Source: Rhizodiscina lignyota
Taxonomy: Eukaryota
Assembly (NCBI GenBank): GCA_010015805.1
Contig: ML978122.1
Location: 2,204,453-2,268,452, forward strand
Direction of reading: 5' to 3'
Length of the DNA: 64,000 bases
Shown here: positions 7,307 through 28,800 of the stretch, one piece after another
How the letters are laid out: each line of letters begins with the position of its first letter
How positions within the stretch are numbered: the first letter of the stretch is position 1
Program-made: the position numbers and the translations under genes
The notes under the pieces: model-generated
Told to the model about the DNA's origin: nothing
What the model saw: the letters and a program-made list of their open reading frames with translations, nothing else
Database searches by the model: none

Positions 7307-9311
7307 CTATACAATTGTCACTTCATGTGTCTGTGCGTCACTCCACCATCGCTGCTCGGATTCGACGGTTATGCATATCCCGATCCTCGCGTAAGTGGCT
7401 TTTTGAGAATCAACTGGTAAAAGAATAAGTGAGATCAAATCAGAGCGTGACAACGCTAGCTGTAGACATTGAATCTCGGATGCCTTTGAAGCTCTCTCCA
7501 TGCCAGTCCTATCGTCGTCATCGAAAGAAATGGCTCCGACGGTTTTTTCTTCCCTTTCGTCCACGTCTAGCCCAATCAGTTCTGGTGGACCCTCTTCAGG
7601 TCGCCCGGATTTGTAACCGATACGATGGGATTGTTTCATCAAGCTGCGGAGTACCAGTCGCCCTCCTTTAACCTCGCTAAAAGGGGCGCTTGGATCTAAA
7701 AGATCGATATTGCAGTCAACTATGCTGGCTGTAAAAGAGGATTGCTTGTAGGGCCTGTTCGCATAGATGTAGGTGACCATTCCATCCATCGAAGCCCAGG
7801 ACCAAGATGGTGCTCTGTAACTCAGGGGCCTGGAGGTTCGTGCGTGTGAGAAGACCCCACCCCACGGTCCAGACTCGTCTGTACGCCTCCAAAGCAGATC
7901 GCGCCAAAGGGTGTTGCGCCACAGTCCAGCCAGATACTCACCAAAGTCTCCCTCAGCATCATAAGAAGAGGATATTCCAGCCTTCTTCGCAACGGCATTA
8001 GCCTTGGCCAGAGCCTCCTTTTCATCGCCTGCTCTATTGGTGTATATGTGTGCCGCCAACCCTGCGATGGCAGGAAGCTTGTCCTTTTCTTTGGTCAAGT
8101 TGCGTCCACAGTAATTTTGAACAAGCCAGGTCCATCTTGGCTTCAGTGGTGGCGTTGGCAATCTGAGCTTGTATATGTTGTGCCATTTGGAGCTGCCATT
8201 GGGTTGATGAGTCGCACTGGATTGATGAACCAATCCAAGATCGCAATGCCAACATACTTCATTCAGGCAGAATACCGCATTCCGTTGCGAAAGCAGGCCC
8301 TCTTGCAGTGTCCATGCTCGGTTTACGATTGGCTCATCCTTATAATCACGCTGATCTAACATGGTTAGTTCTGCTAGAGAGTCGATTGTATGTGCTCTGT
8401 TAGGATTCTTGATGGCAACTTGCGTTGGAATAACGCAGCGATAGAACAACCCTCCATCACAGTGTCTGGACGCTGCCGCAGAGAGGGTGAGGTACGCATT
8501 ACCATAGATTTTTCCCATTTTGCCGGCTTCATGCTCCCAGTCCTCTTTTGCTTCGCCATCAGATCCTTGAAGAATGCATAATACATCCACCCAAAGATAG
8601 GTGACGCCAAGTTGTTGTGCAACCTCCACAGCGTCTCGTAAAGTCTGAGGGAGTTCTTTTATAGAGAAGCATCTAAGCCGGTCATGGAGCGTCTGAGTTG
8701 ATGTTACAAAGGTTTTTGCTTTGCCCCAGCAGTACGATAACGCAATGTACTTTCCAGTTGATCCTTCAGTCGGTTCAACTAGTCGGAGATTGCTCGATTC
8801 GCCATCACTAACCTGGATCAGGCGTTTCGGAAGCTCTCGATGTACATCTGGTTAACAGCCGTATTCGTTGCATTCTTTCAGTTGCTCTTTCACAAATCGG
8901 ATGCCGGCTAAGCCGTTTGGATGCGCGGCAATATCACCGTTGGAAATGAGTAAGTTCTTCGAAGGGCCTGAGGAGTGAACATGACTACTGTAAAGACTTC
9001 TGAGAGCACTCACCTTCGAAGTGCGCCAGACGAACCGAATTTGCTACTGTTTCACCACCTGGCTGCTTCTGAACAAGAATCCTTAGCTGGCTCAACGTTG
9101 GTTCATGCCGAAGTCTGACGACTCCATTTTGTGGTAATGCTTTTTGGCTCAGGCCGACCGCAGCATCAATGAAGGCACAAAGTCGATATCCACGTTCTTC
9201 TCCGAGAAGCACCTCTTTCATCGACAAATGCTCCAAGGTCCATGGCTCGGTTGGGCCCGGGAAAGTGATGGTGTTACAGAACGCGCACAAGCCGTTATCA
9301 CTGGAGTTCAT
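7307..9311 (-). pseudogene. HET-domain gene with an in-frame TAA at 8852-8854; intron about 8968-9013
   Basis: Spliced frame reads ...KECNEYGC*PDVHRELPKRLI...YIALSYCWG...LPQTLRDAV.VAQQLGVTYLWVDVLCILQ...DWEHEAGKMGKIYGNA...RAWTLQE...YLAGLW...APSWSWAS, all HET-family motifs. Confidence 0.8.
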
Positions 9312-11545: not shown

Positions 11546-12607
11546 ATGGCTGACTTGGAACATCCGACGAAGGCTGGCCTGTCCCTTCCATCTCATCCAA
11601 CCCCAGTATATACCTGTTTGCGGCGTGTCTCTCATCCGCCTACCCCTAAAGAGACCCAATTCCCCGCTTACCAACAGACGCTCGAACCGCATATTCGCCG
11701 ATCGTCTCTTGCACACTCTCACGGCCATGGGGCAGCGGACGAAGACACACGCGCGTGCACACACAGGCACGGGTACTCGCTGCGTACATCTGCAAGCCCA
11801 TCGCTCGCACGGAAGATTGCCAAAGACAAGGGCGAAGTACCGTCGGAGATCCCGCAAACGTCACTTGCGGCAAAAGGGGCATGGAGGATGCTGACCCATT
11901 ACACGCGCGATGTATCGTTGATAAAGATGCGAACTGCGAACGCCCAATGGCTCACTAGCGTCGATGCCAACATGATTGCGGCAGCGATCGTACGGGAGAG
12001 AGCAGAATGTGAGGTGCTTGAGCGAGAGAGGAAAGATCGCGGGAGAAACCGCAGCGAGTCGATATTCTCCAAAGGCCAGTCGAGCGAGAGTAAGAAGGAA
12101 TCGGAAGGGGAGGAAGTATCGGACAGTTCAACTAATAGGAAAAGCGGGCTTGTGGCGGATAGAGTCCGGGAATTCGAGGTCAGGAAGTCGTTAGATGCAG
12201 ATTCGGAAAACGTGCCACACTCGAAAGTCAACGGTTTCGAAGCTAGTAGCACCGTTGGGACGTCGACAGGCGATGTACTGCGCGAGAGCATGTACGACGA
12301 GCTTTCGACCTCTCCTCCGCTGTCGTCAAGCACTGCTCAGCAGATGTTCCTCAAAACAGCGGAGAAATTCTCCGAGCAACGTAAGAAAACGAGTATAGAC
12401 GAAAGAAGGCTGATACATGAAGCAGCATGGTGCTGGATAGAGTCGCATCTGGACCACTACGCGAAGGTGTTCAGGAACAATATGGAGAATCCAAGAGCTT
12501 CGAAGACGATTATGTGGGAACAATTGGTGGAGTTAAGGAAGCGGAAAGATGAACTGGAAGAAGAGCGGAAAGTCAACAAATTGTTTAGGAAGGAGAAAGG
12601 TGCATAG
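11546..12607 (+). CDS. Hypothetical protein, charged and low-complexity, possible coiled-coil C-terminus
   Basis: Uninterrupted ORF of about 353 aa from MADLEHP; no family recognised. Confidence 0.6.
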   Translation: MADLEHPTKAGLSLPSHPTPVYTCLRRVSHPPTPKETQFPAYQQTLEPHIRRSSLAHSHGHGAADEDTRACTHRHGYSLRTSASPSLARKIAKDKGEVPSEIPQTSLAAKGAWRMLTHYTRDVSLIKMRTANAQWLTSVDANMIAAAIVRERAECEVLERERKDRGRNRSESIFSKGQSSESKKESEGEEVSDSSTNRKSGLVADRVREFEVRKSLDADSENVPHSKVNGFEASSTVGTSTGDVLRESMYDELSTSPPLSSSTAQQMFLKTAEKFSEQRKKTSIDERRLIHEAAWCWIESHLDHYAKVFRNNMENPRASKTIMWEQLVELRKRKDELEEERKVNKLFRKEKGA

Positions 12608-12831
12608 TGAGGAAGACAGCATTCTAGTAACCTCCGGGATATAGGGATATTCCAATATGTAAGACAACCCAGTCTTCTGAAATATCGCACAGCTGCCACA
12701 TGTCGGAGGGTCTGAGAAAAGGGCGGGTTTTAACAGTCAATGTATGTAAGGAGAAGAACCTCTGGGTTCATTGGGTATCTATTGACTGACCATTCATCAT
12801 TCCATTCCGATACTCCTATTGAAAATGCCGA

Positions 12832-13984
12832 CTATTTTGCACCTTTTCCCTTAGCTTCTGCTTCTCCCATCTCCCTGATGAAGACCTTGACTACGCCGTC
12901 CACAACGTCATTCTTGGCGTCTTCAAAGCCAGGGCTGATTCCTACAGCCAAGTATTTGCCGTCGCTTGAGAAAGACAAGCTTGCTATGCTCGAATTGTAG
13001 CGCTGATACTGCCTGATCCTCCTCTTCGCGAGCCCATCCCACAGAGCCACCACACCATCGCCTCCACCGGATGCGAAAGTCCCGTGGACTGGATGGAATG
13101 TTAAGGCGTTCACTGGATACACCACATCGACTCCATCTTGTTGCTGACGATGGCACTTGAATGCGTATTTCCTCGCCTGCGACTGTTCCGATGGGTCAAA
13201 CCACTCTACCGCAATGCGGCCTTCTATGCTGCTGCTTGCGTATCCTGCGTCATCCGGCATACATGCTACTGCGCGAGTCATAAACTTCATGCTACTTTCT
13301 CGGCGTTGCCATGGCTCCACCTCGAGGTTGTTTGGAGGACCTTGTGAGGATTGAGACGCAAGGAGCGCGAGCGATTTGAGATCGTAGATGTTGACTGCAC
13401 GGGCGGCCATGGCGACGACCAGTTTTGTTTCGGTACTTGAGAGGGAAAATGGCTTGTTTGGAAGATGGATCGTATTCGGCGTGTGAGAAGGCTTCGAGGG
13501 GAAATGGATGTGGAGAGTGGAATCCCATGAGGCGGAGACGAGGACTTTGTGGTCGAGGCTGTAGACAACAGACTTGACACCTGCGCCATGAGAACTGAGT
13601 ACTGTTTGCTCACCAGTCTCGAGGTTTATCCTACAATATACAGGTTAGTTATGCAGATTTTGGCTACGAAGTAAACAGACCTCTTAACATCCCAGTCCAA
13701 TCCAGCGCTGAAAGCCTCATTTTCATCTTTGCCCCAGCAGACGTCTAACACGGGTGCGCGGTGCTCGAACTTTGCGATGAGTTTGCCACCAGACTCTTCG
13801 TGAGTGTCGTAGAGGTAGACATGTCTATCCCACGAGGATACCAGAAGACGCGTCGATGAACCTGGCGCGAACTTCACGGCGGATATCACGTCGGACGGCG
13901 GCTCCGAGAGCTCGAATTGGCCCATAGCTGAGTGTCAGCGACGGAGAACGGAGTTATTGGAAGGAGGAAATTACCTTGACTCAT
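12832..13984 (-). CDS. BUB3: Spindle checkpoint WD40 protein Bub3; 3 exons
   Basis: ATG AGT CAA G|gtaa micro-exon; PPSDVISAVKF, LLVSSWD, RESSMKFMTRAVACMP, SSIEGRIAVEWFD, KYAFKCHR, YPVNALTFHP.HGTFASGGGDG. Confidence 0.92.
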
Positions 13985-14348: not shown

Positions 14349-15236
14349 TCAATCTTCCACATCGTACCGCCAAAGCTTCCTCGGATTTTCGACCCAGATC
14401 TTACGGATAAGGCTCTCATCCCCGTCACACCAGTCAATGCATTGCTTGACAAATCCAATGTCGTCAATTTTCCGGTAATCTTGGTGTATATGTCTGTTTC
14501 CACCTGGGTTTGCCTCTACTGACCCTGAATGTGGCCAATCACTCGCCCAAACGATACGATCGGGAGCTGTCTGGATGATTCCACGGCAATACGAGTCCAT
14601 ATCTGGCAGCTTCGGGAATCGATATGTCCCGCTCAGTTTGATCCAAATTTCTTTCTTTCGTAGACTCTCCATCAGCTCAGCGTAGCCTTCCTGTCCAGAC
14701 GCTGGCCTTGACTGGTCGGGATGTCCAACGTGATCTATGCAAACGTCTACTCCCAATTTCGGGATCTCATCGGCGATAATGGCAAATTGGCGAAGAGCCA
14801 TGTACAGTTGCAGGACCCAATTTCGACTTCTGATCTTGTCGGCGTACAAACGGAGCAATTTCGCAAATGTCGCCTTGTCGAGATCAACACCTCCAGTCTT
14901 AATATTCAATCGAGCCCCTCGTACTCCGGCGCTATGCAATGCGTCAAGCTCTTCTTCGGTAATCTTCTCTGGATCCAGCAGAACAACGGCTCTTCCTTTA
15001 CCCTTCAGGTCATTCATAGCCTCGATCGTAATGCGATTGTCGTTTCCGTACGTCGATATGTTGATGATGCAGACATGATCAATTCCTAGCGTGCTTTCGA
15101 ACCGGAGTAGATCGTTTAAGTCAGCTTTCTTTGGTCGATAGAGGTAGTCGGGATCGAATGGATAGCGCTCTTCATCCACGACGTGAACATGCGAATCCCA
15201 TGACCCGGGGGGCAGTTTATAGTTTCCAATTGTCAT
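14349..15236 (-). CDS. Amidohydrolase_2 family lactonase (LigI / COG3618-like)
   Basis: WDSHVHV, YGNDN, GVRGARLN, IDHVGHP, IKLSGTYR and WASDWPH motifs. Confidence 0.85.
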   Translation of the reverse strand: MTIGNYKLPPGSWDSHVHVVDEERYPFDPDYLYRPKKADLNDLLRFESTLGIDHVCIINISTYGNDNRITIEAMNDLKGKGRAVVLLDPEKITEEELDALHSAGVRGARLNIKTGGVDLDKATFAKLLRLYADKIRSRNWVLQLYMALRQFAIIADEIPKLGVDVCIDHVGHPDQSRPASGQEGYAELMESLRKKEIWIKLSGTYRFPKLPDMDSYCRGIIQTAPDRIVWASDWPHSGSVEANPGGNRHIHQDYRKIDDIGFVKQCIDWCDGDESLIRKIWVENPRKLWRYDVED

Positions 15237-15837
15237 GGTGGCAATTCGTGCACAGTTTTATTTATGTCACACTTCAAATGAGTCGAACTGAAGAGGAGTA
15301 TCTTGACTAATTTCGCAGATGTCGCCCAATTTAGCACCTGACACTTCTGAGATTTGATATTTAAGGAGTCTGATTTTGGTCCAGTGCTAACTAACCGTAG
15401 TCCGACGGACCTTGCGAAAATCGGCTTAGCATCCACTGTCCTGCCTGCACATCTACAGGTTTACGGCCTTCAATGTGCCGCGAACATACGGAGTCCTCCT
15501 CGGAAAACCCGTGCTCTTTTCCACAGGATTCAACCCAGTTGTATGGAACTCTTACCACACAAGACGATCTTCACTCCGTATGGCCGCGGGCCGCCAGCTT
15601 CCCCGCAAAAGTACACTCGGATCCATGCATCCGGAGGCTCGACAACCACGCAGGAGATCTTGGCAGTCAGGTGTTTGCAAATCACGACGCGAGAAGATGA
15701 GTCGCGACGGGGAGTTATGCAGTAGGGGTAGGCTGCAGAGTGCCGGCCATTTGCAGGATTGAATAATTCTAAAGTAAAAGGAGCCATGTTCACTTCCATT
15801 AGTAGTATATCTCACGCTCTCTTCATTCAGAGTCAAA

Positions 15838-17668
15838 ATGGTAGACAAAGGCAACGTTCACGTTGAAGATGCTCCTAACAATGGAGCCGTAAATACTATA
15901 GATGAAGAATATGGCGAGAAGAAAGATTTACAATATGCGTCGGAAGAAATCCAGCAGCAAACGCAGGTTCTTGATTCACCGGAGAATTTAGAACGCATTC
16001 GACGCTACTTGTGGAAATTGGACTATATCATTCTACCTACCATCTCAGCTCTGTACTTCTTCGAATATCTCGGTGAGTGAGCGATACTCTCGTTATTAAG
16101 TGGTCGACGATGCTGACTGATTTTAGACCGTGGCAATATTGCAGTAAGTGCGCTTTGAAGAGATTGGACCAGTTCTGAGGCTTACGTCCGAACAGAACGC
16201 AAAGCTACTCGGCATCGCCAATGGACACGATACAAAATTGGACGGCGTTGGCTCTGGGACCACAGCACTTAATGCAACGCAGTGGGAGACTGTGATTATG
16301 ATTTTTTATGTTGGACTTATCCTATTTCAAGTTCCCGGATGCATTGGTTATCGTATTTTCTCTCCGTCTAAGGTGCGTTTGAAGCACAAGCAATCAAATT
16401 AGGATCTAAAGCAGCTACGCTAACTTGTCTCAGTGGATTGCCTTTACTGTATGCTCCTGGTGCGTCGTTGTACTGTTTCAATGTCTTTGCTCGAGCTACG
16501 GTGGCCTACTTGCATGCCGCATTCTCCTGGGGACCTTCGAGGGCTTGTTCGGCACCGGAATTGTGTACTACCTATCCCTCTGGTACAGAAGAGACGAAAT
16601 GGGCTTGCGCGTATTCTGGTTCTTGGGACCTACAGCAATCGCGGGCGCTTTTGGGGGCCTGATTTCGTACGGCTGCGGCAAAATTGCATCTTCGATTCCC
16701 AAATGGAAGATTCTTTTCCTGATTGAAGGCCTGCCTGGATTCTGTCTCGGAGCGTTCTGTCTGTACTGGTTGCCAGATCGGCCGTTGAAGAACTCGCGGT
16801 TTACCAAAGATGAAAAAGTGATCGCAAAAGCGAGGTACTACCACGAGTCGTTTGACAGGGCTGGAGCTATTTCCTGGAAGCATGCCCGCTTGACTGCTAC
16901 GGACTGGAAGCTGTACGCCCAAGGTAAGTAATAACCTCATCTGATGGATCCATGGAGCCTGACAACTTAAAAGCTGCGATCTACCTACCAACCGCTGCGC
17001 TATTATCATCCATTAGTGGTTTTCTACCTAGTATCGTGCAAGATTTAGGCTACAAATCTCCAACGAGTGCGAATCTGATGACCGTCCCGCCTTACGCATG
17101 CGCTTTTGCGTTAATGTTCACGACATCGTGGACATCAGATCGTTTCAAGGAGCGTGGTATCCATATCACGATTCTCGCGTCGATCGCAGCAATATGCTAT
17201 GTCTGCCTTGCGACATTGTCAGAGGACCAGCTGCATGCCAAATATGGTCTTATGGTATGTGCCGTATGCGGAAACCATTCTCTCCCAAAACACTAACACG
17301 CTCTGTAGTGCATCGCTGTCTCTTGTGTGTACAGCACATATCCGCCGAGCCACGCGTGGGCAGCCAACAACTTTGGTAACGAGACAAAACGAGCTATCGG
17401 TATGGGCATGTACACAGCGATTGGCAATATGGGCTCCATTGCCGGATCCTTCTTCTACCCGTCCACTGAAGCGCCACTTTTCCGAAAGGGACACTGGCTC
17501 TGCTTCGCAATGTCGGTCGCGACCGCCGTTATTTCGCTATCAAACAGCTTGGTTCTCCGCGCAGTCAATAAGCGTCGTGATAGGCTATACGGAAAGCCAC
17601 TAGAAGGAGTACCAGTCGATGTCAGCGAGGATGCGGACAAGAACAAGATGTTCAGATTCATCACATGA
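15838..17668 (+). CDS. MFS transporter, anion:cation symporter (Tna1/Dal5-like) family; multi-exon
   Basis: KLDYIILP...YLDRGNI, RILLGTFEG, YLSLWYRRDE, W.ILFLIEG, LPDRP...F, ANLMTVPPY, WAANN...TKRA, FRFIT* tail. Confidence 0.9.
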
Positions 17669-17752
17669 TTAGGAACACGAAGATTCGTAGCTTTTCATTG
17701 CAGAAAAGGCGGTTGAGAATACTATGTACATAGGCAACGCAACCTTCGAGAA

Positions 17753-18706
17753 TCATACAATTCTTCCGGGCACGTCCTTGCCCTCCAATAATGCCAGCAC
17801 AGTCTCGACACTTGCAAGACCACTACGAACTTGATTCTCAATGGTCGATCCACCAATATGAGGGGTCATGATAACATTCTCGCACTTCAAAAGCCCATCT
17901 CCATATGCTGACATTGTCGGAGGCTCGTAGTCCATTGCGTCTAGTCCTGCTCCGCCCAGCTTATCCTCCTGCAGAGCCTTGAGCAACGCTGCTTCGTCAA
18001 CCACGCCTCCTCTTGCAGCATTGATCAAAATGGCATCCTTCTTCATCAATGCCATTTCCTTCTCACCAATCATGTGTTTCGTCTGGGGAGTCAGAGGCAC
18101 ATGCAGCGTCACCACATCCGACTCCTTCAATAGCTCGTCCATTTGTTGCACTCTCGTGTGCGGGATGTCTTTCCATTCCGGTGCAATTGGATCGTACCCG
18201 ATGACCTTTCCCTCCATAGCTCCTATCCACTTCTTCGCAATGACTTTCCCAATATTCCCCATGCCGATGACGCCGAGGGTCTTGCCATACAAGCTCTTGC
18301 CAAGCGCTTTACTCCTGACAATCTTCTCGCCGCTGCGTATGCGCCGATCAAACTCAGACAGGCGACGTGATATGGACAACGCTAGACCCAAGGTGAGTTC
18401 AGCGACGGCTTCGCTGTTGAGTCCGGGAGTATTGGCAACAGCGATTCCATACTTCTTCGCATCTTCAAGATTGACATTGTCAATGCCGACGCCCTGCTTG
18501 ACGACTGCTTTCAGCTTCTTTGCCTTTGAGAATTCCGCTTCGCCTAGTCGTGTCTCTGAGCGGATGAGAAGTGCATCTGCATCTTCCTGCCAGTTTGATT
18601 TACGAGGGTCTGTGTAAATGATGGATTCGACTGACGAATTTGACTGGAGCAAATCAATCGCGTCTTGGTAGTACGGATCCACCATATACACTTTTGGCTT
18701 CGACAT
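17753..18706 (-). CDS. D-isomer-specific 2-hydroxyacid dehydrogenase (PGDH-like, no ACT domain)
   Basis: GVGIDNV, NSEAVAE, GKTLGVIGMGNIG, TLHVPLT, INAARGGVVDE, LDAMDYEP and TPHIGG. Confidence 0.9.
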   Translation of the reverse strand: MSKPKVYMVDPYYQDAIDLLQSNSSVESIIYTDPRKSNWQEDADALLIRSETRLGEAEFSKAKKLKAVVKQGVGIDNVNLEDAKKYGIAVANTPGLNSEAVAELTLGLALSISRRLSEFDRRIRSGEKIVRSKALGKSLYGKTLGVIGMGNIGKVIAKKWIGAMEGKVIGYDPIAPEWKDIPHTRVQQMDELLKESDVVTLHVPLTPQTKHMIGEKEMALMKKDAILINAARGGVVDEAALLKALQEDKLGGAGLDAMDYEPPTMSAYGDGLLKCENVIMTPHIGGSTIENQVRSGLASVETVLALLEGKDVPGRIV

Positions 18707-19201
18707 GATGTGGATAGGTCCTAAAATATTGCAATTTCACCACTTTGAAAGTTGAGTATCAGACGGTTTCGGTCGCGTGACGGCCTTCTGTGCACCCCGT
18801 TTCTAAGATTCTTCCCAGTGCCTTACTCGTGTATCGAATCCTCACGCAAGCCAAGGGATGATTCAGCCTCAAAGGTTAATAAATTAGTATCTTAAATCAT
18901 CTCGCTGCCTATTTCAGATACGCATTCAACGTTCCGATTTAAATTGGCTGCGTGCTTCCGGAGTTGAAGTGATGCTCGCGACTCAGAACACCGACTTTAG
19001 CGGATGGTCTCGCTCCGTTTTTGACAACTCCTAGATCGGAGCAGCTTCGAGTCTGCAAGTCGCCATATCTGCACGGAATATCTTATGACGAATGTTTAAA
19101 GTCGGCTTGACGCGTCTTCCGGGATATTCGCGCGTCGTTTGAGAGAAGAGACAAACCTTCACTTTTAGGTCTCAAAACTAAGAAAGAGAAATCTTGCAAT
19201 C

Positions 19202-20060
19202 ATGGCGTCCGATCCCATAGTAGAGGAGTTGAAGAAATTCACGACGTTCGTAATTTTCATATTGAAGCTCAATTGAATTGGTGGTGAAGATGTCTGACAA
19301 TTTGCTAGGTGTGATGTTTCCGATGCTCTTATCAAGCTCAAGTATCCTCACGGAGGATTCCTCCCTGATATCACCATGTTCTCGCCTCAGCGCATGGACG
19401 GCGATTGCAAGATAGTCGGCCCAGCATACACTGTTCGCTATGTCCGCAAGACCTATGATTTCGAACCGAGTCCAACCGAACACTACGTAAGTCACAGCTG
19501 GGTCGGGTTATGGCTACACAGGAATCTAACAATTGCCCAGATAGACGGCGTACCGAAGGGCGCAGTCGTCTTCCTATCAACACCGGCAGGAACCGTGAAT
19601 GCTGTATACGGTGGACTGATGAGCACACGAGCGAAGGCTTGTGGCGCGGTAGGATCAGTGATAGATGGCAGAGTGCGCGATTTGCAGGAGCATCGCGGCC
19701 TCAACTACCCCATATTTGCAAAGTCTGTCGGAACCCCACCGCCTACTGAAGTGGTTCGGGTAGCAGAGGTCTGTACTGAAAGTCTGAACGTAAGATACGC
19801 TTGCTGATAAGTCCAAGGTAAATGGCACTGTACGGTTCCAAAACGAAGGCATGGATGTACCGATCAATGCAGGTGACTACATCATCGGTGACTTGAATGG
19901 CGTCGTTTGCCTGCCGAGAGAATTGGCTAAGAAAGCACTGGAGCTCATGCCGTCGCAACTCGAGGCAGATGAGAAGATGGCGGAGGATATCTTAAGCGGC
20001 CTCACTTATACCGAAGCGGCTAACAAGCACAGAGCACATGTCAAGTACCCTAAATTGTAA
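19202..20060 (+). CDS. RraA-like HMG/CHA aldolase-oxaloacetate decarboxylase family protein (YER010C/LigK-like); 4 exons
   Basis: Spliced MASDPIVEELKKFTT|CDVSDAL; GPAYTV, AVYGGLMSTRA, VIDGRVRDLQE, GDYIIGDLNGVV. Confidence 0.88.
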
Positions 20061-20116
20061 AGCAGCCTTAGATATTCAATTGGCGTAAGCCAGAGGGTAT
20101 AGATAAAGGATCGAGT

Positions 20117-21238
20117 TCAAGATACCAACTTTGCATCACATCCCCATTCCGCTGCTGTCTTGTGTAACGCATCGATCTCTCCTTTCGTGAATGCCACACC
20201 CTTTTCTCGATTTTCTTTCTCTTTGATGAACTCGATCTCCCCTGGAGTATATATTCTGTCGACTCCGGCAGCTTTCTCACTCTCTCTTACTGTCTTCATT
20301 AGCGTTTCCATTCGGTCGTAGTACTCGTCCATGGAATCAAGGAACATGTCTGGTTTGAAGACCATGAACCAGTGGCCAACCCCATGCTTCTTGTCAAGCA
20401 CCTTGTACTGGTCTTGGACATTGCCAGCAAAGCTTGCGCCCGTGAGTAATCCGCCGAATATATCCATCATCATGGCAATTCCAGAGCCCTTCGGACCCCC
20501 AATCGGCAAAACGACTCCCCCATTCAACGCTGCTGCGGCATCGGTTGTATGTCGACCTTCAGCATCAAGAGCCCAACCTTCAGGGATTGGTTCTCCTCGC
20601 CTTGCTGCTTTGCGTATTTTGCCCTGCTAGCGGTCAGTCTCATATGGCTCCTACGGTCCGGAAAACCTTACTCGTGCGACTACAGATGGCGACATATCAA
20701 GGGTCCAATGATCTCCGTTCTTTCCAGGTAGTCCGACTGCAAATGGGCTTGTTCCTAATAGAGCCTCTTTACTTCCCCATGCTGGCATGCTCCTCGACGC
20801 ATTCGTGAATACCATAGCCCCCATCTCATTTTCAATTGCTTTTAATAAGTAAGTGGCCGCCATTCCAAAATGGCCACTATCCTTCACGGCACAAATTCCA
20901 ACGCCATAGATCTTGGCCATCTCCACTGCTTTGCTGACAGCCAGATTCGCCGCAACGAAGCCGAACGTATTCTTCGCATCCAAGACCGCCATGACCGGTG
21001 ATTTAGAGACGAAAGAAAGCTGAGGCGAAGGGTCCAACACGCCGGCTTTTACGCGTTGTAAATAGACTGGTACACGGTTTACACCATGAGTGTCGACGCC
21101 TCGGAGATCAGCCAAAGTAAGTGAATCTGCAATTAATGATGCATGCTCTGGCGGTACGCCTGCGGCTTGAAAGATGGAAGTTACAAAAGAATGAATAGAG
21201 GAAGGCGGAACGCGTACGAGTTCCGATTGTGTCGCCAT
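20117..21238 (-). CDS. Ldh_2 family (type-2 malate/L-lactate/ureidoglycolate/sulfolactate dehydrogenase-like) oxidoreductase; intron about 20627-20670
   Basis: ADLRGVDTHG, DAKNTFG, SGHFGMA, GTSP, LDMSPSVVAR|GKI, PIGGPKGSG and YTPGE. Confidence 0.9.
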
Positions 21239-21931
21239 TTTGTATACCAATTGGTTTTTCTAGAAGATGTCGCGTGCTTGGTTCATTACTGACTATTAGG
21301 AGAAACACATGTACGCGGTCATAATTTGACACAAAGGGCATTCACGCCGAAGTCGGCAAGGCTCAAAAAGCCCCAGAAATAATATATGCTAGGATTGAGT
21401 CAAGACCAATATGGAATGAGAAGAGCTGGTTCGAGTGCTCAGAGCAGAGGCGGATTGTAATGATCCGTACGGAAAAGTTTCCGATCTGTTTAAGCTCGGG
21501 AGCATACAACCCACCGGAGAACGACGCTGCTTGGACAGAGACGAGTTACAACCGAGAAATAGGGTAGAATCAGTTCGAAGGTACCATATCTACGCTCGTG
21601 ATTCCATGGGATCGTAGTTCGACGCGTGTATGAGATCGCGAAAGGAGAAACCACTTGACGTTAAGATTGAGCACGCTCTAATGGGAGTAGCCAATATTAG
21701 TGCATCTTCTATAGCAGAAGAAAAACGTATTATTCTTTCATCAACGAGAGTTTGTCCAAATGCACACGCGTGAAGAGTATCCTCCAGGGCAAGCGCCAAG
21801 CGGCCAAGATGCTTGAGGCATTTGCCGCTGCCGCGTCTAAAACGCCACAATCGTCGAGCGCGCGTCTATGACGTCGATCTTTAATCTGCGCTTCTGCGCG
21901 GCGAACGTTCGCATTCAACAATCTTTACATC

Positions 21932-23174
21932 ATGCCTTTCGCACAGCTAGTGATCGGGCCTCCTGGCTCTGGCAAGTCGACATACTGCGATGGCCTGCAC
22001 CAGTTCATGTCTGCAATCGGTCGTCCCTGTTCCGTCGTCAATCTCGATCCTGCAAACGATCATGTTTCGTACAAAGCTGCCCTGGATGTCCGAGATTTGG
22101 TGTCTCTAGAAGAAGTGATGGAAGCAGAAGAATTGGGCCCGAATGGCGGTATTCTATACGGATTGGAGGAGCTTGAGCATAACTTTGAGTGGCTCGAGGA
22201 AGGACTCAAGCAGCTAGGCGACGACTATGTCTTGTTCGACTGCCCCGGCCAAGTGGAGCTCTTCACGCATCACTCCTCGTTGCGAAACGTATTCTTCCGT
22301 TTGCAAAAGCTCGGGTACAGAGTCCGCTCTCCCATATCTGCACGCCCCTTCATTATTTACAAATCACAAGAAATATTTTACTAACGTTGCACAGCTCGTA
22401 GTCATTAACTTAATCGATTCCTACGTTCTCACACAGCCATCATTATACATCTCGGCACTCCTGCTAGCTCTGCGGAGCATGCTGCAAATGGACCTCCCAC
22501 ATCTTAACGTCCTCACGAAGATCGATAATCTCGCCTCATATCCACCACTAAACTTCAACCTCGACTTCTACACTGAGGTGCAAGACCTCAATTATCTGCT
22601 CCCATACCTTGATGCAGAGCGACCGCATCTGGCGACTGCAGGCGCAAAGACTTCAAGTAGTGAGAAAGCGAAGAAAGAATCGAACGAGGAAGGCCAAGAA
22701 GCAGAATCGGATCCACCACCCTCCAAATTCCATGCTCTCAACGCGGCGATAATCGAGCTTGTCACAGACTTTGGCCTAGTCGGCTTCGAAACACTTGCAG
22801 TAGAGGATCGCCAATCTATGGCAACACTCTTGCGTGCTGTCGATCGCGCTGGTGGATATGCCTTTGGACCAGCAGAAGGTGCAAACAGCACGGTGTGGGA
22901 GGTGGCGATGCGAGAAGGCGCGACAACAATGGAACCTCGAGATGTGCAGGAGCGTTGGATAGACCGTAGAGAAGAGTTTGATGAGTTGGAGCGCAAGCAG
23001 TGGGAAGAAGAGGGTAAGGCTTTGAGAGGGGGCCCCGCTGCAGAACAAGAAGAGCAGGATCAAAAGATGGAGAATCAGCTCGATGAAGATAGCGATCCAG
23101 AGATGAGACAGTTGCGAAATGTTCCCCTGCAGGATTCCGGCATCAAGATTATCAGAAAAGATGATCCGAGATGA
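21932..23174 (+). CDS. GPN2: GPN-loop GTPase 2; intron about 22322-22395
   Basis: MPFAQLVIGPPGSGKSTYC, VVNLDPAND, LGPNGG, FDCPGQVELFTH, HLNVLTKID. Confidence 0.92.
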
Positions 23175-25841: not shown

Positions 25842-28800
25842 TCAGGAGAAGAAATACTGACTGTCCCTCAGCCTTGTAACGTCAAAGTCACCTTTAGCTG
25901 GGACGTCTGGGAATGTAAGCGGGACCCAAAGTGGTATCTTCGGCTCCGTTTTGAACTGTTTCGTGGGCTTGGAGGTCTTGGCTCCACCCTCGGAAGGTTC
26001 CTTCGATTCCGAATCCACTGCTTCATCGATATCTGATGCGGACGCTTCCATATCAAGCGCCTCGTCGCTCTGTCCAGCCTCGTCCGCTGCAGCGGCAGCA
26101 TCACCCTGCTCTTCGCTGTTGCCCAAGCTCATAGGCGGTTCGAAAGCCTCAGCATCTCCAGCGGCCTGGAAGATGCTCGCAGCCGTGACCATGGCCTCGC
26201 CCTTCTTCCTCTCCTCCGGGTCTTTAGATCTCAACAGTTTCTGTCGCTTGTGCTCCTCCAACAGCTCCTTCATGCTCGCCTTGCTGTTGATTGCACGCAT
26301 GTTCTGCTCTGCCGGCTTTGAAGCCCTGAGCTTCTTAATGGCCTTTCCGACTGGGCTGCGCGCGTAGACATGGGTCAGGTAGATCGATTTCTTATAGCGC
26401 GCCTTGAATTCCGCTGCTAGGCGACCGATGATGTCTTCCGAGTGCATGCGTACGAATGCATCACGCAGAACACGGTTCATGACCGGGATATCTGCTGCAT
26501 GTGTCCAGAATGAATCGTGGACCGATGAGAAAGTCAGGCCAAGTTCGCTACACTTGATTGCCGAGAGCATCATGTGCGTAGCGTCGAGAGAGTGGATAAA
26601 GTTCGGAGGAAAGCCTTGAAGCTGCTTGCGCTTAGCCACAGGGTCGTTCAGCTGCGGCTCACGCAATGCAATATCTTGCATTGTTGTCCGGATCTGTCGT
26701 ACTCTTGTGGTACGATATGGCTGAACGACAGGCATCTTCAGTGGTGTGGTCCAGACAACACAAGATCGAAAATGATCAGACAGGAGCTTCCCAGCACCAT
26801 TGATACCTTTTCCCTTTCTGACAAACTTCTTGATCTTGGTAGACATTTTTGGACCGTAGTCATCGGTCTCTCCAGTTTCCTTCTTTACCATGAGCTCAAG
26901 TTGTTCCTGCGTGATGGCTGTCGAGATCCTGGCGGCACAATGACCTAGCCATCTTTGAATGTTTTGAGCACCAGTGAAGAGTGTGTCCAATGATGCGAAT
27001 ATCTTGTGAGCGATATAAGCCGAGAGTTTGTAGTTGTCGAGGGCAGGGTCTCCATCGTCCGGAATGATTTCGTCCAATTGCTTGTGAACTTGGGCACGAG
27101 CTCCGACAAAAGTCACACCATAAACGTTGGTCATGACCGTCTGTTTTACAACTTTCCGGGTAAGCTTCCCAACAAGTTTCCGCGCCATTGGGTTTTTCGC
27201 TTCTGCGTCTTTCGCGATGTGCTCTTTGACCAGTTCAGCAACCGCAGTATATATATCAGCTGGTTTGTCGCCGGGTTCCAGGTTCACTTGTCGAGCGCCT
27301 AAAGAGTCACCACCAAGAGCGGCATAATGCTGCAGACCATTGCAAGTTCCATCTTGATGAATAGGAAGATGCGAAACAAACTTTTCTGGGTTCTCCGAAT
27401 TCAAAGCGTTCTTGAGTTCGAAACAGGTCGCAAGACATTGCCAGGGATCTTCGGCCTTGAGCCACCACCTGTTTCCGCTCAGCGGGTTCGAGACGGAATC
27501 AGTGATATCGTCCATGTGTTTTATCGCGAAGTTTTCCCTATCCTCCAAACTGGCCTTGTCGAATCCAAAGACATTCGCGAGGTGAATCTTGAGCCATTTC
27601 AGACCAGTATGGCCAAGTTCCTTGCCGTTTGCAAATATCAAAAGGCCTCGTGCATTGTCAGCTCCCATGTGATTGAGATATGGAGGGATTGGATAAACTC
27701 TGCCACGAAAATCGAGATTGTGGGGGCAGTAGAAGACTTCGTGCAGATATGCGCGTGCAATTTCCATTTGGAAATTCTGAAAGCATCGTTGAGAGTGAAG
27801 GCCGGACCTTTCGTTGTTGATTACCGAAACTCTCTGCAGCCAAGCCTTGCGCGCGTCGCGATCTGTTGGGTCTTCTGGTTCGGGTGGATAAGGGATCTCT
27901 GGGTTATCGGGAGCGATCTTGGCGATTTCTTCGCCCGAATTCCACGCCTCAAGCATCACGTTGAAGACGTTTTGATTTATCCTCCATGGGACCGTCCCGA
28001 GGACGTTCAGCCCCTGGAAGACTTGGTCCATGTCGCCTTTCTCGATCGCTGCAATAGTGTACAGCTTTTGTGTGTCACTGCTCTCTTTCTGCCTGACGAG
28101 ATTGCTTGGATAATGAAAATATCCGCCGTCTTTAAAGCCAGTCCAGGCTTTCGGCTCAGCCACCATAGGAAGCCGTGCCCCGAGAATACCTCGCAGTGGT
28201 TCTCTTTTCAACTTTTCGACAATCTCGGGGTGGATGTGGACCATGCCATTGCGTCGCCCATTCTTGTAGACTGTCTCGTGTCGAAATGCATGTTCTATCT
28301 GAGGCTCAGTGGTATCACCATCGGACTTGTCGACAGTAAATTTGGCTACATCCAGGAGTTTGGACATGAGTAGTGCAGCTACTTGCGTCTTTACTTCTGT
28401 GGGCCACTCCTCCTTTTCGACATCAACGAGTCTGTGCGCAAGATCGCTCTCGAGACTAGGCCTAACCGACATGCCAGCATCAACAGAGGTTTGACGGGTC
28501 AGACCGGTCATGTTTCGAGCGACACTTTGTCGGCGCCCACTACGAGTCTTGGAATTATTTTTTTGCCGAGCACGAAGTCGGCTTTCGGAATCTAGAGCTT
28601 TTCCGATTTTGGATGTGACAGAGACGAGCTTCGCTCCAGATGCTGCACCCTGCGTCGCGAGAAATTTCATTGCCTCGATGACAGTGATGGCGGAGATGTG
28701 CTCTGCTGGTAGCGCTTCCAGGTATGGTCCATATCGAAGGCGGTGGGAGTTCTCTTCACCGCCTCCTTGTCTTGGTTTGGCAAGAGCCTCTTTCACTGCC

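Follow-up and report, generated by a model that had tools for sequence, protein, structure and literature searches.

A five-gene cluster conserved among ascomycete fungi and very probably devoted to consuming an acidic lactone

Five neighbouring genes of Rhizodiscina lignyota, at positions 14349-21238 of the window analysed here (the whole stretch of DNA, 64,000 nucleotides of contig ML978122.1), very probably encode a still undescribed pathway that consumes an acidic lactone, because many fungi that are not related to one another, and some bacteria too, keep these genes together. The grouping of the five genes is not due to chance, and the cluster is real, since orthologues are linked in many fungi. 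That the cluster is a genuine, selectively maintained ascomycete catabolic unit for an imported organic-acid lactone is a reading to which we give about an even chance. No description of the five-gene set was found in the literature searched, which agrees with the original prediction that no fungal cluster of such composition had been characterised.

RESULTS

Layout of the locus

All five genes were confirmed at the positions and on the strands first proposed for them, and their identities are supported by Pfam and NCBIfam matches and by database proteins identical to three of the gene models. The predicted arrangement of two divergent pairs is also seen in the coordinates, with convergent gaps of 84 bp (17669-17752) and 56 bp (20061-20116). 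The head-to-head intergenic regions between the lactonase and permease genes (15237-15837, 601 bp) and between the D-2-hydroxyacid dehydrogenase and RraA-like genes (18707-19201, 495 bp), with lengths taken from the gene coordinates, are presumed bidirectional promoters, and the 693 bp between the start of the Ldh_2 gene and the next gene (21239-21931) is the presumed Ldh_2 promoter.

Outside the cluster, the left flank is occupied by a WD40-repeat gene (12832-13925, minus strand) with at least two exon ORFs and with Pfam WD40 and beta-propeller matches on 12835-13644 and 13626-13925, and the right flank by a gene of the GPN-loop GTPase family (21932-23174, plus strand) with Pfam ATP_bind_1 matches on 21872-22381 (E 4.6e-46) and 22218-23171. 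At the family level, these flanking genes appear compatible with BUB3 and GPN2, respectively. A survey of ORFs of at least 140-150 aa over the whole 64-kb window revealed neither a dioxygenase nor a hydratase, a dehydratase or a Zn2Cys6 factor, and no LigAB-, LigC- or LigJ-type gene, as expected from the original prediction that the cluster lacks a dioxygenase and a hydratase or dehydratase.

The lactonase and the permease

The LigI-like Amidohydro_2 lactonase (14349-15236, minus strand; 295 aa, one exon; identical to database protein P0001) matches Pfam PF04909 with E 2.4e-35. Its best solved relative is LigI (4d8l), with E 2.4e-29, or E 5e-51 when the family profile was used. In a fold search with the AlphaFold model (pLDDT 93.6), LigI was again the best match (TM 0.80, E 1.6e-20), 4do7 gave TM 0.67 and E 1.6e-8, and by TM-score the match to Atu3138 (4mup), which we take to be an aldaric-lactone isomerase, was as high as that to LigI (TM 0.78-0.81). 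L-fuconolactonase entries were absent at E <= 1e-3 when solved structures were searched with the family profile, and the family is closer to LigI than to sugar lactonases, clearly so in the case of the solved L-fuconolactonase. The score against the NCBIfam model of 4-sulfomuconolactone hydrolase is 128.8 bits (cut-off 500).

The equivalents of the catalytic His/His/His/Asp residues and of Arg124 of LigI are kept in the window lactonase. Among 120 fungal relatives, the equivalents of LigI His31, His33, His180, Asp248 and the carboxylate-binding Arg124 are found in 119-120 where present, and the other near-invariant cationic residues are R106, K200 and R206. The position of LigI Arg130, the second arginine that binds 2-pyrone-4,6-dicarboxylate (PDC), is Gly in the window lactonase and Arg in only 50 of the 120 relatives, so the number and placement of the carboxylates on the substrate are uncertain. 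A Lys or Arg stands two residues before this position in 101 of the 120.

The permease, a major facilitator superfamily (MFS) protein of the anion:cation symporter (ACS) type (15838-17668, plus strand), is a predicted model of 519 aa with six exons (15838-16072, 16127-16143, 16196-16372, 16434-16923, 16974-17254 and 17309-17668). Its spliced frame is open, with five GT..AG introns of 50-61 nt, and its exons match Pfam MFS_1. Exon 4 scores 69.6 bits against TIGR00893, the D-galactonate transporter subfamily, which is below the cut-off of 395.

The two dehydrogenases and the RraA-like protein

The D-2-hydroxyacid dehydrogenase (17753-18706, minus strand; 317 aa, one exon) matches Pfam PF02826 (E 2.3e-56) and PF00389 (E 7.4e-24), and 1wwk (E 1.2e-63) is the best among its solved relatives. 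It is of the short type that resembles phosphoglycerate dehydrogenase or glyoxylate reductase without the regulatory domain, and these two also give the NCBIfam scores of 282 bits (phosphoglycerate dehydrogenase, the best; cut-off 454) and 220 bits (glyoxylate reductase; cut-off 455). A GxGxxG motif and Arg, Glu and His motifs, which we take to be those recognised in D-2-hydroxyacid dehydrogenases, are readable in the translation.

The second oxidoreductase belongs to the Ldh_2 family of type 2 malate/L-lactate dehydrogenases (20117-21238, minus strand). Its two exons (20672-21238 and 20117-20623) both match Pfam PF02615, and the spliced product of 357 aa is letter for letter database protein P0121. 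It scores 239 bits as an L-sulfolactate dehydrogenase (cut-off 500), 221 bits as a ureidoglycolate dehydrogenase (cut-off 356) and 161.6 bits against the 3-dehydro-L-gulonate 2-dehydrogenase model. The solved relatives of exon 1 are 3i0p, 2x06 and 1v9n, with E of about 1e-31.

The remaining gene (19202-20060, plus strand; exons 19202-19245, 19309-19486, 19541-19768 and 19818-20060) encodes a Pfam RraA-like protein of 230 aa that resembles HMG/CHA aldolases and is a letter-for-letter match to database protein P0241. Among solved structures, yeast YER010C (2c5q, E 1e-37) is the best relative. It aligns with the HMG/CHA aldolase 3noj and keeps the 'vrd' Arg-Asp motif, and it scores 57.3 bits against NCBIfam ligK_PcmE (cut-off 304.5). 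As the fungal protein is closest to the widespread YER010C type, of which many fungi have a gene, its role could be broader than this cluster. None of the enzymes attains a curated equivalog cut-off of NCBIfam, LigK included, so each specificity is putative.

Conservation of the cluster in fungi

We examined 80 metagenome loci anchored on Ldh_2. In two fungal contigs among them, L001 and L002, all five families lie within ~7.5 kb, with identities to the window proteins of 48-51% for the lactonase, 62-65% for the permease, 57% for the D-2-hydroxyacid dehydrogenase, 47-53% for the RraA-like protein and 60-65% for Ldh_2. Their gene order differs from that of the window, and the head-to-head pairs of lactonase with permease and of D-2-hydroxyacid dehydrogenase with RraA-like gene are retained. 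A third contig, L003, keeps Ldh_2 and RraA together.

In seven named fungi, which by source name belong to several ascomycete classes, two or three of the enzymes likewise have locus tags or accessions that are nearly consecutive. The locus tags are those of Bogoriella (M1820_008830, 008832 and 008833 for lactonase, Ldh_2 and RraA, respectively), Cladophialophora immunda (CLAIMM_08122 and 08124) and C. psammophila (A1O5_06462 and 06464), and the GenBank accessions are those of Coniochaeta ligniaria (OIW25717, 25719 and 25721), Aspergillus pseudoustus (KAL2858529, 532 and 534), Talaromyces proteolyticus (KAH8697896 and 898) and Mollisia (KUJ07653 and 655). Apart from the window's own contig, 16 contigs, as judged by identical length, are apparently common to the best 120 lactonase and the best 120 Ldh_2 matches, and one database protein, P0187, is a single 656-aa model that fuses the lactonase and Ldh_2. 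Orthologues are thus linked elsewhere, as the original prediction would have it. It had also held that the cluster has no regulator, which is true of the window but not of other fungi: Zn2Cys6 factors adjoin the cluster in L001, L002 and L003, and they are orthologous, with 64-73% identity in the Fungal_trans domain. A dedicated regulator exists in these other fungi.

A CGGAT-N6-ATCCG palindrome, a motif picked post hoc, lies at 15618-15633 in the lactonase/permease intergenic region and is conserved in neither L001 nor L002. A second palindrome, CGGAT-N7-ATCCG, also picked post hoc, lies at 21451-21467 in the presumed Ldh_2 promoter. No promoter motif common to the three fungal loci was found.

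Bacterial counterparts

Bacteria hold operons analogous to the fungal cluster, and in one of these all five families are present. In that locus (L044), the genes for an HpcH-type aldolase, a 2-hydroxyacid dehydrogenase, RraA, an MFS permease, Ldh_2 and an Amidohydro_2 protein are all co-directional. The full set is rare: Ldh_2 lies within 10 kb in only 2 of 80 bacterial loci anchored on the amidohydrolase, and of the 76 bacterial-type loci anchored on Ldh_2 just one has RraA. The amidohydrolase is present in 18 of these 76. RraA and a 2-hydroxyacid dehydrogenase occur together in seven of the 80 amidohydrolase-anchored genome loci, which come from Variovorax, Acidovorax, Pseudacidovorax, Pseudomonas and an alphaproteobacterial MAG.

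Up to 5 kb from the 80 bacterial amidohydrolases, the families seen most often are TctC tricarboxylate receptors (26/80) and the beta-decarboxylating 2-hydroxyacid dehydrogenases of the Iso_dh type (14/80). The Iso_dh gene lies on the same strand and within 135 bp of the amidohydrolase gene in five loci, and is nearby in six of the eight bacterial rows closest to the fungal lactonase clade. Most bacterial lactonases close to that clade adjoin genes for tricarboxylate-binding proteins and Iso_dh. These neighbours suggest a substrate class.

DISCUSSION

The enzymes look catalytically competent, because the LigI catalytic and Arg124 equivalents are conserved and the Arg-Asp motif of the RraA-like protein aligns with that of HMG/CHA aldolase. 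We infer the reactions, their order and the substrate as follows. An anionic compound would be taken up via the ACS-type permease, and its carboxyl-substituted lactone ring would be opened by the metal-independent LigI-type amidohydrolase to give a free 2-hydroxy di- or tricarboxylic acid. Either dehydrogenase could then oxidise the 2-hydroxyl to a 2-oxo group in an NAD(P)+-dependent manner, with Ldh_2 taking the L/(S)-type configuration and the D-2-hydroxyacid dehydrogenase the D/(R)-type; both epimers may be used, or the second dehydrogenase may reduce a carbonyl co-product. Finally, the Mg-dependent RraA-like enzyme would cleave the 2-oxo acid between C3 and C4, and the products would feed central metabolism. 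We hold this sequence of import, hydrolysis, oxidation and cleavage or decarboxylation with middling confidence. The order is chemically coherent and agrees with the bacterial gene neighbourhoods. Several observations count against it. As LigI itself already releases a 2-oxo/enol acid, a lactonase of this kind need not be followed by a dehydrogenase; the Gly at the Arg130 position, the scores below equivalog cut-offs, the YER010C-like character of the RraA-like protein, the rarity of the full set in bacteria, the fold match to Atu3138 and the lack of a common promoter motif are further points on that side. Two reactions are known for the RraA family, namely retro-aldol cleavage, here to pyruvate and a carbonyl acid, and beta-decarboxylation of an oxaloacetate-like 2-oxo acid. 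The retro-aldol step to pyruvate in the original prediction stands as one of the two, but the bacterial Iso_dh neighbours agree with beta-decarboxylation at least equally well. As substrate class we commit to lactones of 2-hydroxy polycarboxylic acids, e.g. dicarboxy-butyrolactones of the isocitrate, alloisocitrate or hydroxycitrate-lactone kind, and the likeliest substrate is an isocitrate-lactone-like or PDC-like lactone.

The best of the alternatives, which we nevertheless regard as unlikely, sees in the cluster a fungal form of the lower protocatechuate-4,5/gallate meta-cleavage pathway. The lactonase would convert PDC to 4-oxalomesaconate, the RraA-like protein would act as 4-carboxy-4-hydroxy-2-oxoadipate aldolase to yield pyruvate and oxaloacetate, hydration would be spontaneous or encoded elsewhere, and the dehydrogenases would merely process products, e.g. 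oxaloacetate to malate. The rank of LigI in both sequence and fold matches, the conserved catalytic residues and Arg124, the cationic residues at or near the Arg130 position in many relatives and the alignment with LigK-type aldolase all favour it, and so do the habits of many cluster-bearing fungi, judged by source name (e.g. Coniochaeta ligniaria, Mytilinidion resinicola and Cadophora), which are wood or lignin associated. However, an extradiol dioxygenase, LigC and a LigJ/GalB-type hydratase are absent from the window and from the flanks of the cluster in both L001 and L002, and no LigAB-type dioxygenase is among the annotated neighbour families of the 80 nearest bacterial amidohydrolases. 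The low ligK_PcmE score and the Gly at the Arg130 position also argue against it. Moreover, two conserved dehydrogenases would be left without a necessary role.

Slightly less probable still is the breakdown, without a dehydratase, of an aldonic, aldaric or ascorbate-derived sugar-acid lactone, in which the lactonase would open the ring, a dehydrogenase would form the 2-keto sugar acid, the RraA-like aldolase would cleave it, and the D-2-hydroxyacid dehydrogenase would be a hydroxypyruvate, glyoxylate or 2-ketoaldonate reductase. Sugar lactonases occur among COG3618-type amidohydrolases, and known RraA-type aldolases favour 4-carboxylated substrates, the latter speaking against this route. In its favour are the strong fold match to Atu3138, the permease exon that matches the D-galactonate transporter subfamily, the resemblance of the D-2-hydroxyacid dehydrogenase to glyoxylate and 2-ketogluconate reductases, the inclusion of the 3-dehydro-L-gulonate 2-dehydrogenase model (161.6 bits) in the Ldh_2 family, and the SMP-30/gluconolactonase genes in the Variovorax and Pseudomonas operons. 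In addition, PMC11066805 describes an epimeric pair of carboxylated lactones from plant ascorbate breakdown. Yet the lactonase is closer to LigI than to L-fuconolactonase, the dehydratase or kinase typical of sugar-acid routes is absent from the fungal clusters examined, and it is tricarboxylate receptors and Iso_dh, not sugar-acid dehydratases, that predominate around the bacterial amidohydrolases. The galactarate genes of A. niger, as given in Table 1 of PMC5153877, belong to other families.

It is improbable that the cluster serves to detoxify, make or modify a lactone toxin or secondary metabolite instead of assimilating carbon. A lactonase could inactivate a lactone toxin, and fungal secondary-metabolism clusters typically join a Zn2Cys6 factor with an MFS transporter and with tailoring oxidoreductases, but no backbone enzyme (PKS, NRPS or terpene cyclase) is present in the window, L001 or L002, the transporter is of the anion-importer type, and in bacterial operons the same families are accompanied by uptake systems (TctC, TRAP, MFS) and by lyases of central metabolism. 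Fortuitous adjacency of five functionally unrelated genes, from families that are all large and common in fungal genomes, is hardly credible given their joint occurrence in independent fungal loci with rearranged order, their linkage in named fungi of several classes and their recurrence together in bacteria.

We therefore return to the breakdown of a carboxylated lactone by way of a 2-hydroxy polycarboxylic acid, and regard the cluster as a good testable lead, not a revolutionary one. It is not a plain copy of the bacterial lig pathway, as the original prediction also maintained, for it has no LigAB-, LigC- or LigJ-type gene in the window and its aldolase-like protein falls short of the LigK cut-off. 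With regard to the Iso_dh genes beside the bacterial amidohydrolases, a dehydrogenase together with an RraA-type decarboxylase would be the two-protein equivalent of Iso_dh.

Gene content of the locus

Translation of the region with the standard genetic code gave two intron-free and three spliced genes, and the family of each is supported by Pfam. The five gene identities that the original prediction had read from the sequence alone are thereby borne out. The intron-free genes encode an Amidohydro_2 lactonase (AH; 14349-15236, minus strand, 295 aa) and a D-2-hydroxyacid dehydrogenase (HADH; 17753-18706, minus strand, 317 aa). The spliced genes of the window encode an MFS permease (six exons, 519 aa), an RraA-like protein (four exons, 230 aa) and an Ldh_2 oxidoreductase (two exons, 357 aa), and their introns are all 45-63 nt long with GT..AG ends. 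Residue by residue, the spliced RraA-like and Ldh_2 models equal the database proteins P0241 and P0121, whose source name is Rhizodiscina lignyota, and the AH equals P0001. The convergent gaps are 84 bp and 56 bp, as had been noticed, and the divergent promoters are 601 bp and 495 bp long.

A WD40 gene adjoins the cluster on the left and a GPN-loop (ATP_bind_1) gene on the right, beyond which a mitochondrial-type RNA polymerase is encoded; the five genes are therefore placed among housekeeping genes. The polymerase gene (25845-30089, minus strand) is a single ORF of 1415 aa, of the phage-type single-subunit (mitochondrial) kind with RPOL_N and RNA_pol domains. The window also holds three genes with a HET (heterokaryon incompatibility) domain, at 734-2134, 7310-8851 and 60828-62576. 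We examined ORFs of 140-150 aa or more throughout the 64-kb window and found no dioxygenase, LigC, LigJ/hydratase, dehydratase or Zn2Cys6 factor; within that scope, the claim that the cluster lacks a dioxygenase and a hydratase or dehydratase stands.

Conservation in fungi

A search of metagenome contigs with the Ldh_2 alignment gave 80 loci. When the five window proteins were compared with these by local tblastn, all five families were located in two of them, L001 and L002. Both contigs are fungal, because their ORFs are split and they carry Zn2Cys6 and Fungal_trans genes. The order AH(-) MFS(+) HADH(-) RraA(+) Ldh_2(-) of the window becomes RraA(-) HADH(+) Ldh_2(+) MFS(-) AH(+) in L001 and HADH(-) RraA(+) Ldh_2(+) MFS(-) AH(+) in L002. 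Gene order is thus rearranged, yet the AH and permease genes, and likewise the HADH and RraA-like genes, stand head-to-head in all three loci, as is expected of shared bidirectional promoters under selection. The contig L003 and its near-duplicate L004 hold only Ldh_2 and RraA of the five families; they represent the same Ldh_2, RraA and Zn2Cys6 locus in different assemblies, with identical match coordinates and scores, and were counted once.

In named fungi, linkage was inferred from the homologue lists of three window proteins. Locus tags are neighbouring in Bogoriella megaspora (M1820_008830 for AH, M1820_008832 for Ldh_2 and M1820_008833 for RraA), Cladophialophora immunda (CLAIMM_08122 and 08124) and C. 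psammophila (A1O5_06462 and 06464). GenBank accessions are near-consecutive in Coniochaeta ligniaria (OIW25717, 25719, 25721), Aspergillus pseudoustus (KAL2858529, 532, 534), Talaromyces proteolyticus (KAH8697896, 898) and Mollisia scopiformis (KUJ07653, 655); judging from record numbering, consecutive accessions would be neighbouring genes. The best 120 AH and best 120 Ldh_2 matches share 16 contig sizes beyond that of the window's own contig, and some of the contigs so shared are merely 12-26 kb long. Linkage in other fungi, on which the original prediction depended, is upheld by L001 and L002 and by the near-consecutive tags or accessions in these seven fungi. Co-location of functionally linked genes in several distant species, beyond conserved synteny, marks a fungal metabolic (catabolic) cluster, and the locus shows it.

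Some homologues deserve mention in their own right. P0187, a 656-aa model on a 2.5-kb contig, joins PF04909 and PF02615; it may be a genuine lactonase-Ldh_2 fusion or may result from the gene caller merging two adjoining genes. P0242, P0211 and P0236, close relatives of the fungal proteins, have labels that include a Terriglobus roseus MAG (RraA, 79% over a 76-aa exon query, 6-kb contig) and Quercus suber (Ldh_2, 58-60%); these are probably fungal contigs within non-fungal assemblies.

Regulator and promoters

A Zn2Cys6/Fungal_trans factor adjoins the cluster in L001 (14859-17252) and L002 (7981-9328) and the shorter gene set in L003 (11133-13273). These three factors are orthologues that share 64-73% identity across the Fungal_trans domain, and no homologue of them was found in the window. 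That the cluster has no regulator, as first proposed, thus holds for the window locus and fails for L001, L002 and L003; the regulator-less cluster is therefore peculiar to the window's locus. Where present, the adjoining factor is an obvious experimental handle for turning the cluster on.

The three cluster promoters in the window share no 8-10-mer. A comparison of nine promoter regions, drawn from the window and from L001 and L002, gave no k-mer that rose above shuffled controls (the top 8-mer was present in 4/9, with a null maximum of ≤5). A CGGAT-N6/7-ATCCG palindrome has exactly two copies in the 64 kb, at 15618-15633 in the promoter between AH and the permease and at 21451-21467 upstream of Ldh_2. 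These two copies compare with 0.11 expected, and 1/100 shuffles reached two; the pattern was derived from these very sites. A near-copy, CGGATGGTCTCGCTCCG, lies at 19001 in the promoter between HADH and the RraA-like gene, and the palindrome was not found in L001 or L002. As a cluster promoter motif it is only a lead.

The lactonase

The AH has the Amidohydro_2 (beta/alpha)8 barrel of the cog3618 type (PF04909, E 2.4e-35). Its closest solved relative is Sphingomonas LigI, the 2-pyrone-4,6-dicarboxylate (PDC) hydrolase, with E 2.4e-29 by single sequence and E 5e-51 by family profile. The AlphaFold model (pLDDT 93.6) has LigI (4di8 and 4d8l) as its top fold matches, with TM 0.80 and E 1.6e-20. 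Atu3138, with TM 0.78-0.81, is as near as LigI by TM-score; solved L-fuconolactonase entries are missing from the profile search and match the fold more weakly (TM 0.67, E 1.6e-8). The sole NCBIfam match is 4-sulfomuconolactone hydrolase NF042924, almost over the full length (E 2.3e-37); its 128.8 bits fall short of the cut-off (500). ESM Atlas, queried with the lactonase, gave generic bacterial Amidohydro_2 clusters only.

In the pairwise alignment with 4d8l, H16, H18, H169 and D233 of the window protein align with LigI His31, His33, His180 and Asp248. We take the three histidines of LigI to polarise the lactone carbonyl, Asp248 to activate water, and Arg124 and Arg130 to bind the carboxylates. 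Among 120 fungal AH relatives, the equivalents of His180 (120/120) and Asp248 (119/120) are kept, as are those of His31 (72/73) and His33 (73/75) where the position is not a gap. The Arg124 equivalent, R109 in the window protein, is kept in 119 of the 120. The Arg130 equivalent is Gly115, so that the pair of carboxylate-binding arginines is incomplete; the residues at this position among the 120 relatives include Arg (50), Thr (36), Ser (14), Phe (7) and Gly (4). A Lys or Arg stands two residues before it in 101 of the 120, and R106, K200 and R206 are near-invariant. Judged from these residues, the pocket very probably has a strongly cationic character.

The dehydrogenases, the RraA-like protein and the permease

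The nearest solved relative of the RraA-like protein is yeast YER010C (2c5q; E 1e-37 over the whole length), which reportedly has aldolase and oxaloacetate-decarboxylase activities. Pfam places the protein in the RraA-like family, whose members carry out retro-aldol cleavage of 4-carboxy-4-hydroxy-2-oxo acids and decarboxylation of oxaloacetate. In the alignment with the HMG/CHA aldolase 3noj, 'grvrd' pairs with 'agvrd', which retains the Arg-Asp pair that we take to be catalytic in this fold. The RraA-like protein has little similarity to bona fide LigK (E 1e-5), and full-length P0241 lies under the LigK equivalog cut-offs TIGR02798 (57.3 against 304.5 bits) and NF006731 (56.0 against 179 bits).

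PF02615 covers exon 1 of the Ldh_2 gene at profile positions 3-180 (E 9.4e-64) and exon 2 at 231-332 (E 9.5e-23), and an alignment with 30 relatives has 81 invariant columns. We compared the protein with L-sulfolactate, ureidoglycolate and 3-dehydro-L-gulonate dehydrogenases among the Ldh_2 subfamilies, and it stays under every curated cut-off: 239 against 500 for L-sulfolactate, 221 against 356 for ureidoglycolate, and otherwise 213 against 496, 173 against 336 and 162 against 316. The HADH has the catalytic and NAD-binding domains (PF02826 and PF00389), and GMGNIG, AARGG, YEP and TPHIGG are readable in its translation, presumably as the GxGxxG and the Arg/Glu/His motifs. Its nearest models are those of short phosphoglycerate dehydrogenases and of glyoxylate reductases, whose cut-offs it does not reach (TIGR01327, 282 against 454; NF009714, 220 against 455). 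Since all four enzymes score under the curated cut-offs, none can be named by homology. For the permease, whose exons were scanned singly, exon 4 scores 69.6 bits with TIGR00893 (cut-off 395) and 42 bits with HpaX, which makes the protein a candidate member of the ACS (anion:cation symporter) family of MFS.

Origin of the fungal genes

The fungal AHs form one clade of 20 rows with an SH-like support of 100 (FastTree, 127 rows in total), and the fungal Ldh_2 proteins form one clade apart from the bacterial ones (29 rows against 78; SH-aLRT 99.8, quick IQ-TREE), in trees that are not reliably rooted and, for Ldh_2, have outgroups on very long branches. Single fungal clades in both trees thus give no sign of recent or repeated transfer, and a recent horizontal acquisition from bacteria is unsupported. 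The ∼50% identity of Ldh_2 to its bacterial relatives leaves room for an ancient transfer.

Bacterial counterparts

The remaining 76 Ldh_2-anchored metagenome loci are intron-less, with ∼47-53% identity, and have AH in 18/76, 2-HADH in 4/76 and RraA in 1/76. The one locus with RraA, L044, encodes an HpcH aldolase, 2-HADH, RraA, MFS, Ldh_2 and Amidohydro_2, all co-directional, and so has the full fungal set. Its AH (12050-13027) has at the N-terminus an RRxF-type motif and then a hydrophobic stretch, an extension that is missing in the fungal proteins, and by this feature may be exported via the Tat route. Also among these loci is a recurrent module of Amidohydro_2, a ∼333-aa protein without a Pfam match, Ldh_2 and a metallo-beta-lactamase-fold protein (L063, 5299-13444; L077, 4514-9828; similar in L046, L056, L068 and L078), near which are AtuA with AtuA_ferredoxin, HpcH aldolase, an Amdase-family protein, a TPP enzyme and ABC or TctC uptake genes.

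A search of bacterial genomes with the AH alignment gave 80 loci, with 2-HADH in 13, RraA in 9 and Ldh_2 in 2. RraA and 2-HADH occur together in 7 of the 80, from Variovorax (three), Acidovorax, Pseudacidovorax, Pseudomonas and an alphaproteobacterial MAG. Annotation of three such loci (L097, L134 and L146) revealed uptake genes of the TctC or MFS type together with LysR, IclR or Crp regulators; the Variovorax and Pseudomonas loci additionally encode an SMP-30 lactonase. We then clustered all ORFs within 5 kb of the 80 AHs and annotated the cluster representatives. The commonest neighbours are the tricarboxylate receptor TctC (26), beta-decarboxylating dehydrogenases (Iso_dh; 14), family III CoA-transferases (12) and LysR (10). 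Iso_dh lies directly upstream of AH on the same strand, with a gap of -36 to 135 bp, in five loci, and is nearby in 6 of the 8 bacterial rows nearest to the fungal AH clade, a placement whose support is weak (85).

Proposed pathway

Enzymes of the Iso_dh family convert a 2-hydroxy acid by oxidation to a beta-keto acid, which they then decarboxylate, and TctC proteins bind di- and tricarboxylates. That the lactonase is coupled with such partners points to the lactone of a 2-hydroxy polycarboxylic acid as its substrate. From the gene content, residues and linkage observed directly, we infer every reaction step. The lactonase would open the ring, and oxidation and carbon loss would be divided between a dehydrogenase and the RraA-like enzyme: Ldh_2 would act on an L-type centre and the D-2-hydroxyacid dehydrogenase on a D-type centre, and the RraA-like enzyme would carry out retro-aldol cleavage or decarboxylation after the oxidation. 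Alternatively, the second dehydrogenase could reduce an aldehyde or oxo-acid co-product, e.g. glyoxylate or hydroxypyruvate. We regard the chances for and against such a breakdown of a 2-hydroxy polycarboxylic acid lactone as about evenly balanced; within it, dicarboxy-lactones of the isocitrate or hydroxycitrate kind are favoured. This reading gives every gene a job and would explain the cationic pocket of the LigI-like lactonase.

The enzyme superfamilies themselves are known and ordinary; what is new is their combination in a fungal catabolic cluster without a characterised counterpart. For many fungal routes for plant- or lignin-derived organic acids and lactones, the gene-level basis is still missing. 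The cluster is compact and widely conserved, has a dedicated regulator and bacterial analogues, and comprises four enzymes and one permease; as these proteins are few and easily expressed, it is an unusually tractable entry point. It is a solid lead, conserved, present in two kingdoms and cheap to test, with the substrate a guess. A pathway could be assigned in two kingdoms at once, and would supply the first physiological roles for fungal YER010C-type RraA proteins, for fungal Ldh_2 and for a large branch of LigI-like lactonases. Should PDC, or a comparable bioplastic precursor, be the compound broken down, the cluster would matter to lignin valorisation, and its genes could be deleted from production hosts or exploited for other purposes.

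Comparison with known systems

The lower pathway of bacterial protocatechuate 4,5-cleavage and gallate degradation shares with the cluster a LigI-type lactonase, which is the best match in sequence and fold, a C-C lyase of the RraA/HMG-CHA aldolase superfamily with the Arg-Asp pair kept, and a putative anion transporter alongside the enzymes. PDC itself as the substrate is accordingly the main rival. It is rather unlikely: no ring-cleavage dioxygenase, LigC or hydratase was found among the larger ORFs of the window or beside the clusters in L001 and L002, and compared with the lig and gal pathways the fungal cluster adds two 2-hydroxyacid dehydrogenases, has a LigK score of 57 against 304.5 and does not keep the Arg130 equivalent. 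A further difference from the bacterial pathway is that the fungal cluster has introns and a eukaryote host. A broader proposal, that the cluster and its bacterial counterparts form an undescribed pathway for dicarboxylated ring lactones (PDC and related ring-fission or plant-acid lactones), seems to us improbable. If true, ascomycetes would own a LigJ-independent, dehydrogenase-coupled 'meta-cleavage lower pathway' and could feed on lignin- or tannin-derived compounds of the PDC type, which would contradict the view that fungi treat aromatic ring-fission products solely by the ortho (3-oxoadipate) route. The AH belongs to the same amidohydrolase subgroup as 4-sulfomuconolactone hydrolase NF042924, a subgroup that acts on carboxylated or sulfonated unsaturated lactones; it is, however, not an equivalog (128.8 against 500), and the rest of the cluster gives no hint of sulfonate chemistry.

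The next rival, improbable in our judgement, is that the substrates are sugar-acid lactones. The fungal non-phosphorylative routes for L-rhamnose (LRA cluster), D-galacturonate and L-fucose have a lactone step and a pyruvate-forming aldolase, and are often clustered and controlled by Zn2Cys6 factors. They employ a dehydratase and DHDPS-type aldolases, whereas the cluster has no dehydratase and has an RraA-type lyase, Ldh_2 and D-2-HADH instead. Several described systems were also considered and set aside: T. reesei L-fucose catabolism follows the dehydratase and DHDPS-aldolase logic (PMC12370193), galactarate catabolism in A. niger relies on other families (Table 1 of PMC5153877), neither an amidohydrolase nor an aldolase is mentioned in the account of the tannic/gallic acid regulon of that fungus (PMC10512348), bacterial L-threonate and sugar-acid clusters are unrelated (PMC12994016), and the families of the cluster are not combined in ascorbate breakdown (PMC11066805). 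Full-text searches, which did not extend to subscription journals and supplements, turned up no account of this gene set in fungi, in agreement with the initial statement that no characterised fungal cluster with such a composition is known. Compared with YER010C and the HMG-CHA aldolases, the fungal RraA-like gene is distinguished by being embedded in a conserved catabolic cluster.

For the breakdown of a 2-hydroxy polycarboxylic acid lactone that we favour, Cupriavidus necator offers a precedent. Its L-ascorbate pathway reportedly uses an amidohydrolase-superfamily lactonase, which opens a carboxylated lactone before an NAD-dependent decarboxylation by a PdxA-family dehydrogenase. The partners reported for that route (a WD40-like rearrangement enzyme, PdxA and L-lyxonate dehydratase) are not in the fungal cluster, and we know of no 2-hydroxyacid dehydrogenase able to oxidise the tertiary C2 of 2-carboxy-pentonates. 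The bacterial Amidohydro_2-Iso_dh-TctC modules, found for example in Cupriavidus numazuensis (L081), Ottowia (L141) and Bordetella, Pusillimonas and Pollutimonas (L104, L126 and L151), encode lactonases that in bacteria rank with the closest relatives of the fungal clade. These bacteria also have genes for cupin and aldehyde dehydrogenase, which the fungus lacks. The uptake proteins of the modules are for carboxylates, as the fungal permease may be, and the modules probably share with the fungal cluster the logic of lactone opening, 2-hydroxy acid oxidation and loss of a carbon unit; in them, one beta-decarboxylating dehydrogenase would do the job of the fungal pair of a dehydrogenase and an RraA-like enzyme.
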